From sequence record PQ571291: a stretch of DNA of 50,066 nt. One strand, 5' to 3'. Shown here piece by piece: positions 34,518 through 35,063 of this stretch (positions within the stretch are counted from its first letter, which is position 1; the number at the start of each line of letters is the position of its first letter). Origin of the DNA: Escherichia phage EF3-1. Below the pieces are notes generated by a model. It did no database searches. It saw nothing but the letters and a program-made list of their open reading frames with translations, and had not been told where the DNA came from. The translations under genes were made by a program, and so were the position numbers.

Positions 34518-34985
34518 ATGACAACCATTACCGTATTCCTGGCTAAAGATGAGATTGATGGCGAAATGTCATTCTTCGCGTTTGAGCACAAAACCGGATC
34601 GCACTGGCACATGTACAGCCACTACACGGTTATTGATATCAACTCATACCGCGCAGGCTCACTTACTGAAAAGCTGGGTTGCTTCATTGGAGCTATCAAG
34701 GCGAACAATGGCTGCGATTGTGAAGATGAGCAAGAGCGCCGCATGTGCGATATGATTAACCCGGTCTATCTTGAGTCGTTCGAGCTTGATGCTGATGTTG
34801 CCATTAAGGTGAGAAAACCTGGTGAGTTGTTGCCAGGGATGCGTGTGCTGACTGGTTACTCTGGCCGTAAGGTGTGGCGCACTGTATCCAAGATTCGCCA
34901 GCGTTCGGCAACATGCTATAGCGTATTCTTTGAGGATGGTTGGAATATGATGTCCGGCAGTGAGGTAAAGTATCTCACCAAATAG
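34518..34985 (+). CDS. hypothetical protein (155 aa)
   Basis: SD GAGG; stop TAG lies inside downstream motif. Confidence 0.6.
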   Translation: MTTITVFLAKDEIDGEMSFFAFEHKTGSHWHMYSHYTVIDINSYRAGSLTEKLGCFIGAIKANNGCDCEDEQERRMCDMINPVYLESFELDADVAIKVRKPGELLPGMRVLTGYSGRKVWRTVSKIRQRSATCYSVFFEDGWNMMSGSEVKYLTK

Positions 34986-35025
34986 CACGAATTGCTAAAA
35001 CCGGATCGGGGCATCTTGCTATAGT
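34981..35025 (+). promoter_or_regulatory. early-promoter cassette
   Basis: AATAGCAC-GAA-TTGCTAAAAC, 22-bp spacer, TG-c-TATAGT (35020-35025), leader TACCCCATCGAAATGAGACACCAATCAGAGGA. Confidence 0.55.
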
Positions 35026-35063
35026 TACCCCATCGAAATGAGACACCAATCAGAGGATTCACC

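Follow-up and report, generated by a model that had tools for sequence, protein, structure and literature searches.

A 21-nucleotide (nt) direct repeat, aaATAGCACnnnTTGnTAAAA, has been described in phage TLS, where 18 intergenic copies lie along transcription about 76 nt before start codons (PMC11447400, 2024). It was also seen in T1, Rtp and Rogue1, only three sigma70-like promoters were found there, and a stoperator, an enhancer site or a UP-like element was proposed, with the function of the repeat listed among the open questions (PMC11447400). Here we present an analysis of this element in Escherichia phage EF3-1 (sequence record PQ571291, whose 50,066 nt were analysed as a whole and are referred to as the window), focusing on the promoter-like cassette around the copy at 34982-35001. 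Judging from sequence, we consider it rather probable that the window has about 21 class II marbox promoters that use the host activators MarA, SoxS, Rob or RamA, most of which have a hairpin inside the spacer or around it.

The closest described host system is micF of E. coli, a class II promoter dependent on MarA, SoxS, Rob or RamA, of which complexes with SoxS (PMC9638938) and RamA (PMC8811837) have been obtained by cryo-electron microscopy. The micF marbox is centred at -41.5 (PMC9638938) and is oriented with GCAC distal and AAA proximal (PMC8811837). Class II marbox promoters have no recognisable -35 element, a canonical -10 element and forward sites clustering at -41 (PMC10268841; also PMC12052159 and PMC8811837). 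The soxbox/marbox consensus has been given as AYNGCACNNWNNRYYAAAYN (PMC2064960), and the pattern derived from chromatin immunoprecipitation as gcannwwntgnnaaa (PMC12052159). On the phage side, cassettes called PeSL, which combine a promoter and a stem-loop, are known from T4-type phages (PMC2839356, PMC4122927).

The window corresponds approximately to the whole genome of a T1-like siphophage (Drexlerviridae, Tunavirus), and its region 33000-41000 shows about 90% identity to phages SA12KD, IME18, Sfin-1, ADB-2 and JMPW1. An initial annotation had taken TATAGT as a -10 hexamer with TTGNTA 22 base pairs (bp) upstream, and had placed a dyad near -41.5 to -42, the position used by class II activators at promoters lacking a good -35 element. 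Direct reading of the sequence agrees with this geometry: TAGCACGAATTGCTA, which is TAGCA-N5-TGCTA, occupies 34983-34997, and TTGCTA at 34992-34997 is followed by exactly 22 bp (34998-35019) and then by TATAGT (35020-35025). With +1 at the predicted A35032, which is the seventh base after the hexamer and therefore at the usual start distance, the centre of the 15-mer is -42 and that of the 20-bp element at 34982-35001 is -40.5. The promoter reading, the absent -35 element (-35 to -30 reads AAAACn) and the class II position of the upstream element were likewise upheld, and the spacing to -10 equals that of E. coli micF. The features of the locus are as follows.

34518-34985, plus strand: upstream gene (155 aa, phrog_12951, function unassigned), whose TAG stop codon at 34983-34985 is the first three bases of TAGCAC
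34982-35001, plus strand: 20-bp marbox-like element ATAGCACGAATTGCTAAAAC in forward orientation, including the dyad 34983-34997 and the published 21-nt direct repeat
34985-34988, plus strand: GCAC, counterpart of marbox recognition element 1 (A site; element definition in PMC9638938)
34996-34999, plus strand: TAAA, counterpart of marbox recognition element 2 (B site, YAAA)
35002-35019, plus strand: variable 18-bp spacer from marbox to -10, without a -35 hexamer
35017-35025, plus strand: extended -10, composed of TGc (35017-35019) and TATAGT (35020-35025)
35032, plus strand: predicted transcription start A, preceded by C35031, where the conserved leader A(T)CGAAAC begins
35053-35066, plus strand: Shine-Dalgarno sequence GAGG and ATG (35064) of the downstream 87-aa gene at 35064-35327

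The element at 34982-35001 has one mismatch to AYNGCACNNWNNRYYAAAYN (A at Y19, as in micF) and none to gcannwwntgnnaaa. More generally, the extended repeat, ATAGCACnnWTTGYTAAAAC or ATAGCACnWWTTGYTAAAAC, fits AYNGCACNNWNNRYYAAAYN at every specified position except Y19, and its GCAC and YAAA elements are 8 bp apart, as the marbox requires. In E. coli micF, the marbox ACAGCACTGAATGTCAAAAC, with A at position 19, is followed by 18 bp and TAGAAT, and the annotated start lies 8 bases past the hexamer; the layout read in this way reproduces the published centre of -41.5, as compared with -40.5 for the phage sites counted from the predicted +1. The two marboxes are both forward and are identical at 14/20 positions, the remaining ones falling within degenerate classes, and the promoters share exactly 18 bp to the -10 hexamer, AAAAC at the -35 region in place of a hexamer, and a good -10. 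They differ in that the phage sites are nearer to the consensus than those of micF or mar, number about 21 in a 50-kb virulent phage genome and usually have a hairpin in the 18-bp spacer. The features that define a class II MarA/SoxS/Rob promoter at the sequence level, namely the site, its orientation, its position (with the start predicted) and the lack of a -35 element together with a canonical -10, are all present.

The marbox of the E. coli K-12 marRAB promoter, GATTTAGCAAAACGTGGCATC (reverse complement GATGCCACGTTTTGCTAAATC), has the same recognition elements, and its reverse complement has a 14-nt run, CACGTTTTGCTAAA, in common with the window copy at 33292-33311. However, the mar marbox is in reverse orientation upstream of a real -35 element (class I type), whereas the phage copies lie forward, across the -35 region. 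As a rough estimate of our own, a match of 18-21 bits would occur by chance at about 1e-6 per alignment; with a few thousand trials of motif, offset and strand, multiplied by the match in orientation and position, coincidence comes to roughly 1e-4.

In the window, the motif TAGCANNNNNTGCTA with up to one mismatch has 23 matches against 1.34 expected, a number reached in 0/100 shuffles, and the two published marbox patterns have 20 sites each, against 0.99 and 0.89 expected. The number of cassettes counted is 21, all with the marbox forward, i.e., with GCAC distal and AAA proximal to -10. The TLS repeat is the same element, since consensus, intergenic location, orientation, distance of about 76 nt to start codons and middle-triplet subgroups agree; the fixed-spacing -10, the C/A start and the marbox match are absent from the TLS paper and come from the present analysis. 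A literature search found no T1-type transcriptome and no paper tying phage repeats, the 21-nt repeat included, to marboxes.

For a study of conservation, copies were collected from the T1 genome, 80 loci around a regulator gene (viral contigs; the gene is at 19487-19939 in the window), Vibrio phage Vc1 and the window, giving 533 copies, of which 173 were non-redundant. Of these 173, 104 have the best -10-like hexamer 22 bp after TTGNTA, 20 have it at 21 bp and 9 at 23 bp; expressed as the spacer from marbox to -10, these are 18, 17 and 19 bp, respectively, so that 133/173 lie within 17-19 bp. The following counts refer to the 109 non-redundant copies with a good -10 at the cassette offset. 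Their consensus is A(-50)TAGCAC-[T/G]WW-TTGYTAAAA(-32), which fits gcannwwntgnnaaa at all ten specified positions. Within GCAC, the first three bases never vary and the final C is found in 106/109, and TTG is nearly invariant, figures that are inflated by the search pattern; at positions outside this pattern, A-50 is found in 106/109, A-34 in 109/109 and A-33 in 107/109. The variation falls on the degenerate positions of the marbox, with W only at -42/-41, Y at -37 and any base at -43. Downstream, -35 to -30 reads AAAACn with no recognisable -35 element, the -10 is TATAGT-like, and G-14, C-1 and A+1 are found in 81 (74%), 83 and 91 of the 109 copies, respectively. After the predicted start, a conserved leader CA(T)CGAAAC(G)AA follows (e.g., window 35031-35042 and 36089-36102), and many leaders then carry ACCAATCAGAGGA around the Shine-Dalgarno sequence, with conservation that extends over the subfamilies and to Vc1 (CAACGAAACGA).

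The same repeat is present at every one of the 81 related Drexlerviridae loci examined, Vc1 among them. Since the subfamilies sharing it have diverged to about 45-60% identity in their proteins, a site that does not change points to a conserved host reader. The T1 cassette (T1 1451) orthologous to that at 34983 differs at 1/22 spacer bases and has a repeat of a different subtype (TTT/T vs GAA/C), with all four changes at degenerate marbox positions. In the substitution profile of orthologous cassettes (34 comparisons, a small and weakly informative sample), GCAC, R13 and YAAA are the least variable, which is consistent with the marbox.

The initial annotation had proposed that the dyad is the binding site of a dimeric regulator, and this part did not survive. 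The arms are only 5+5 bp, and the element reads AAA-TAGCAC-[T/G]WW-TTGYTA-AAAA with asymmetric conservation: the sixth base of TAGCAC (C-44) is nearly fixed while its symmetric partner is T (T-40), 69 of the 109 copies have C at repeat position 13 and 35 have T, so that Y occurs in one arm only, the flanks are AAA upstream and AAAA downstream instead of AAA/TTT, and the orientation relative to -10 is constant. Single-arm variants such as CAGCAC, TTGCAA and ATAGCTA are common, with no compensatory changes between the arms. Promoters of CRP and FNR of class II are alike in the centre near -41.5 and in the weak or absent -35 element; their sites, in contrast, are two-fold symmetric and dimer-bound, and such a site was rejected because of the asymmetric conservation, the fixed orientation and the uncompensated variants. 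The element fits the non-palindromic site of a monomeric AraC/XylS-type protein with a pair of helix-turn-helix (HTH) motifs. No AraC/HTH_18 domain was detected by Pfam in 25 non-structural open reading frames (ORFs) of the window, and tblastn of the window with MarA, SoxS and Rob probe sequences gave chance-level matches only. The match of 16-26 aa inside ORF 30276-30662 was rejected as MarA-like (E 1-2, with the recognition-helix tryptophan absent).

The region from -34 to +6 folds far better than shuffled sequences, with a mean z of -3.1 and 74% of the 109 cassettes below -2. The stem-loop is either wholly inside the 18-bp spacer or encloses the -10, and after the spacer-internal hairpins the T-rich -10 region follows like the tail of a terminator. 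The copy at 34982 has a weak GGGG/CCCC stem flanking the -10 (z -0.18). Since the distance to -10 is fixed despite the variable hairpin position, a promoter role at the DNA level is favoured. The public records of SA12KD and T1 label the cassette hairpins as rho-independent terminators, the name chosen by the SA12KD annotators, and almost no cassette promoters are annotated in them; promoters of these phages are therefore largely missing from databases.

In the marbox mechanism that we propose, the repeat would be a near-consensus marbox, i.e., an asymmetric site of 20 bp to which the host proteins MarA, SoxS or Rob (AraC/XylS family) bind as monomers, with RamA as the counterpart in Klebsiella, Salmonella and Enterobacter. 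A typical cassette would be ordered as an upstream stop codon (often the TAG of TAGCAC), the forward marbox from -50 to -31, the 18-bp spacer without a -35 element, a TATAGT-like -10 (usually with G-14), the C/A start, the conserved leader and a Shine-Dalgarno sequence. As in the solved micF complexes, a single activator molecule bound at GCAC...YAAA would contact the C-terminal domain of alpha, region 4 of sigma70 and the beta flap. These contacts would stand in for the missing -35 contact, and host RNA polymerase would be recruited to about 21 early or middle promoters of a virulent phage. Rob would be the candidate that is present constitutively, and stress or resistance mutations would bring MarA, SoxS and RamA into play. 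We infer binding and activation, and likewise which paralogue may act.

Several points weigh against this proposal. MarA and SoxS are scarce in unstressed laboratory cultures, and T1-type phages are routinely grown in ordinary laboratory culture. Rob is held in non-functional aggregates without inducer (PMC12052159), and activators of this family may have modest effects, as with the two- to four-fold or so of RamA (PMC8811837). The near-consensus extended -10 may confer substantial activator-independent activity, in which case the marbox would be a modulator and not a requirement. A-48, T-40 and the upstream AAA are more conserved than the marbox consensus requires, which may reflect a second constraint or reader, shared descent or gene conversion. 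In addition, the same repeat is found in a phage recorded on Vibrio cholerae (Vc1), and copies without -10 (33292, 42433) and reversed copies at late genes are explained only loosely.

A wider proposal is more tentative, and we regard it as possible at less than even chance. According to it, host MarA, SoxS, Rob or RamA would have come to govern most early and middle transcription of the T1-like phages (Drexlerviridae) by way of about 20 consensus class II marboxes in each genome, and phage development would respond to bile salts, oxidants, salicylate-type signals and marR, ramR or soxR mutations. The activators would be soaked up by hundreds of genome copies, and reversed marboxes would repress late sigma70 promoters until this titration, which would constitute an early-to-late switch.

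Among the alternatives, it is rather unlikely that a phage-encoded protein binds the repeat at the class II position, activating the cassettes and repressing overlapped promoters including its own. The binder would then be either the Cro-like regulator at 19487-19939 (minus strand), whose basic N-terminal arm, which is invariant, might make the contact, or a so far unrecognised early protein. This regulator, a homologue of T1 gp23 and 100% identical to a protein of Escherichia phage LHE71, is the sole predicted transcription factor (phrog_2856, Cro fold, with weak P22_Cro/YdaS matches), and it is present in 824 phage records (41 protein clusters, all listed or named ones being T1-like) and at every related locus fetched. 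The promoter of its gene is of canonical sigma70 type (TTGAAT-17-TATAAT), which is what an immediate-early activator gene would call for; a repeat copy lies in the leader of this gene, and the gene's -10 overlaps the -10 of the helicase cassette face to face, from T1 to Vc1. Structural modelling (predicted local distance difference test, pLDDT, 81) gave a Cro-like, all-alpha core similar to the Xfaso 1 and N15 Cro proteins; residues 1-35 are invariant though predicted to be disordered (pLDDT below 50), and this arm suggests binding to an invariant partner. Cro-type proteins, however, bind symmetric operators as dimers, which does not suit a directional and asymmetric repeat.

The recognition helix of the regulator reads SNQTVQGW here, LKTVWGW in TLS, RQAVEEW or PQAVEEW in the Rtp group and CCVRLTNAY in Vc1, with FQTIQQW and NSLLTIW as further forms. 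At the residues that we take, by our own alignment, to be the base-contact positions of lambda Cro, the subfamilies have NQQG, FQQQ, LKWG, NSTI, PQEE and CVTN, a wide difference, whereas the 19-20 bp repeat is constant, including the copy beside the regulator's own start. This is evidence against the regulator HTH reading the repeat, and co-variation of the two was rejected. If a phage protein were the binder, the complete agreement with the marbox consensus and with the micF spacing would be coincidental. A search for more distant relatives of the regulator, beyond Drexlerviridae, as a test of site co-evolution found none. The initial annotation had allowed for a phage or a host regulator and had named as phage candidates this protein and the HTH domain of 24331-25482. 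The host alternative is favoured by the evidence, and neither phage candidate found support, the first because its contact residues vary among subfamilies while the repeat is constant even in Vc1, and the second because it is a metallophosphoesterase-type DNA repair exonuclease with all HTH matches below threshold.

It is quite improbable that host RNA polymerase itself reads the repeat, as a displaced -35-like TTGNTA and/or a UP-like element, so that the cassettes would be constitutive early promoters without an activator. TTGYTA does resemble TTGACA at 4/6 positions, A-tracts flank the repeat, and many copies, with G-14 and a good -10, may fire unaided. Nevertheless, the 22-bp spacer sets TTGYTA 5 bp, or half a helical turn, beyond the site of sigma region 4, and cruciform extrusion of the spacer hairpin, considered as a means of cutting 22 bp to 17 bp, was rejected since the arithmetic leaves about 8 bp. 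The UP-element idea was raised by the TLS authors (PMC11447400), but GCAC, the most conserved block, is not A/T-rich like UP elements. Family-wide invariance suits a host reader, and the position-by-position marbox fit is left unexplained.

More doubtful still is a mainly negative or structural role, in which the repeat would be a stoperator-like shut-off site, an RNA structure with a 5-bp stem and a 5-nt loop that, together with the hairpin, serves termination or antitermination, or a PeSL-like recombination boundary: copies are intergenic with stop codons in two frames and hairpins after them, either C or T at repeat position 13 would still pair with G in RNA (G-C or G-U), two late sigma70-type promoters are overlapped by reversed copies, two cassettes (22462 and 31650) share a 45-nt identity that suggests copying, and both the stoperator suggestion of the TLS authors and the union of promoter and stem-loop in PeSL cassettes are in its favour, but the constant -10 distance despite the variable hairpin position argues for a promoter role on DNA, the putative RNA stem shows no compensatory double changes and has the common variants named above, and recombination or stop-codon roles are compatible with a marbox and would not alone fix this sequence. 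The RNA hairpin or nut-like element was rejected on these grounds, as the uncompensated single-arm variants argue against it. We know of no repressor for these phages, which are virulent, and this counts against the stoperator-like form. Stoperators lie within transcribed regions of a temperate phage and bind its repressor, with no fixed relation to -10. Those of mycobacteriophage L5 (cited in PMC11447400) are similar to the phage repeat in being many short asymmetric sites, intergenic and along transcription, and differ from it in that the phage repeat has a fixed spacing to -10.

PeSL and the present cassettes are alike as short repeated intergenic cassettes in which an early promoter is combined with a stem-loop between or over the promoter elements, before small genes without assigned function. 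PeSL have consensus sigma70 -35 and -10 elements with an A/T-rich upstream region, whereas the phage cassettes have an activator site in place of -35. A repeated promoter with a stem-loop between small genes was thus found, while for the second mark of PeSL, a -35/-10 promoter with gene-shuffling recombination, the cassettes lack the -35 element and gave one hint of copying: positions 22463-22507 (plus) and 31624-31668 (minus) are identical over 45 nt, from the repeat through the 22-bp spacer and the -10 to two bases beyond it. This identity suggests cassette copying or gene conversion, as has been proposed for PeSL motifs.

Other readings of the sequence were rejected. A UP element is A/T-rich from -40 to -60 without G/C blocks, as opposed to the conserved GCA (invariant), last C (106/109) and TTG (nearly invariant) of the repeat. 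For a sigma54 promoter (TGGCAC-N5-TTGCW), the repeat has AG instead of GG and 8 bp to GC where 10 are needed, i.e., 2 short. For an Lrp site (YAGHAWATTWTDCTR), the flanks fit and C6 and the centre do not, the consensus itself is degenerate, and the AAAA tail and the orientation are unexplained; the marbox has superseded it. Sites of CRP, FNR, Fis, IHF and OxyR, the T-N11-A box of LysR-type proteins and the MotA box of T4 mismatch in spacing or key bases, and TGnTAAAAC within the repeat, taken as an extended -10, has no T at -7.

The cassettes of the window other than that at 34982 are listed below.

15460-15479, plus strand: marbox cassette with a 17-bp spacer and -10 TATAAT, before the Erf-like gene at 15501
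19952-19971, plus strand: marbox cassette before the helicase gene (20034), within the leader of the divergent regulator gene
22462-22481, plus strand: marbox cassette before the Dam-type methyltransferase gene (22533)
23485-23504, plus strand: marbox cassette before 23546; the spacer holds a terminator-like hairpin
25473-25492, plus strand: marbox cassette before 25546
34245-34264, plus strand: marbox cassette before the Gp54-domain gene
36040-36059, plus strand: marbox cassette before 36115
36601-36620, plus strand: marbox cassette (TAAGCAC..., -10 TACAAT) before 36675
37327-37346, plus strand: marbox cassette with 0 mismatches, before 37409
38709-38728, plus strand: marbox cassette before the 38741/38783 gene
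39229-39248, plus strand: marbox cassette before the polynucleotide kinase/phosphatase gene (39313)
40602-40621, plus strand: marbox cassette before 40678
19484-19503, minus strand: marbox cassette (ATAGCAT..., -10 TAACAT) preceding the primase gene and located at the regulator gene's 3' end
29102-29121, minus strand: marbox cassette before the DUF3987 helicase gene
29602-29621, minus strand: marbox cassette before the gene starting at 29541
30117-30136, minus strand: marbox cassette with a 19-bp spacer, before the gene starting at 30059
31233-31252, minus strand: marbox cassette with 0 mismatches
31650-31669, minus strand: marbox cassette
32114-32133, minus strand: marbox cassette
33087-33106, minus strand: degenerate marbox cassette (ATAGCAT...GCAACACA, -10 TATGAT) before the gene starting at 33030

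Five further copies have a different setting.

49138-49157, minus strand: copy reversed within the spacer of TTGACG-N16-TATTAT, a sigma70-type promoter on the plus strand that lies upstream of the major capsid gene; this is a repressor-type position, and T1 has the same arrangement
18410-18429, plus strand: copy reversed relative to the minus-strand tail-fibre gene, at about +1 to +15 of TTGCAA-17-TAAAAT (18461-18433, minus)
42433-42452, plus strand: copy flanked by a terminator and the ribosome-binding site of the small terminase gene (terS), lacking a -10 at the cassette spacing
2978-2997, minus strand: reversed copy just upstream of the tape-measure chaperone gene (3019), with TAAGAT at the cassette spacing on its own strand
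33292-33311, minus strand: copy ATAGCACGTTTTGCTAAAAA without -10 in the divergent early intergenic region, with the 14-nt run identical to the E. coli mar marbox

The four copies adjoining late genes (49138, 18410, 42433 and 2978) are all also present in T1, and a repressor-type position is seen for reversed copies at two late-gene promoters. Because a marbox within the promoter spacer represses pbpG (PMC12052159), we may speculate that the same factor could hold the late promoters down through these reversed copies. Around the first of them, at 49133-49190, the promoter TTGACG-16-TATTAT is followed at once by a strong terminator hairpin (gccgtga...tcacggc and a T-run) and then by the capsid ribosome-binding site, an odd order that is alike in T1.

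Recognition of the marbox turns the 2024 open question on the T1-type 21-nt repeat (PMC11447400) into simple tests. If the proposal is true, a large family of virulent enterobacterial phages, many Klebsiella phages included, would depend on, or be tuned by, regulators of efflux-mediated antibiotic resistance. The Klebsiella phages of this group include several under consideration for therapy, and TolC, the receptor of TLS, is raised by the same regulators. Phage genes might then be better expressed in resistant mutants that overproduce these regulators, a point of relevance to the combination of phages with antibiotics. The cassettes would moreover be compact, near-consensus promoter parts responsive to MarA, SoxS or Rob, and would add a case of a virulent phage in which a host activator replaces the -35 element.

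Some additional observations were made in the window. The small early protein at 34255-34515 (plus), behind one of the cassettes, matches Pfam PF25180, "Phage antiviral trigger protein Gp54", with E 2.4e-35. The divergent region 33030-33714 between the two early gene arms has canonical sigma70-type candidates at 33327-33355, 33395-33424 and 33627-33655 (plus) and at 33369-33340 (minus), which are probably immediate-early promoters. At 19940-20033, the sigma70 promoter of the regulator gene (minus, 20019-19991) faces the -10 TATTAT of the helicase cassette (19990-19995, plus); the -10 elements overlap and the marbox is in the regulator leader, the same being found in T1 and Vc1, and the arrangement looks like a switch. 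The N-terminal stretch of the regulator is basic and glycine-rich (STGEIDKRxxNGNNGTRRGKDKKxR). In the exonuclease at 24331-25482 (plus), N-terminal residues 9-50 have several weak sub-threshold HTH matches (Sigma70_r4_2, HTH_23 and others), and this segment may be a DNA-binding head on the nuclease. Lastly, T1-like genomes with this regulator stand under the label "Campylobacter phage" in about 20 records (A113, A134 and others) and under "Pseudomonas phage Motto" in one, and these host labels may need checking.

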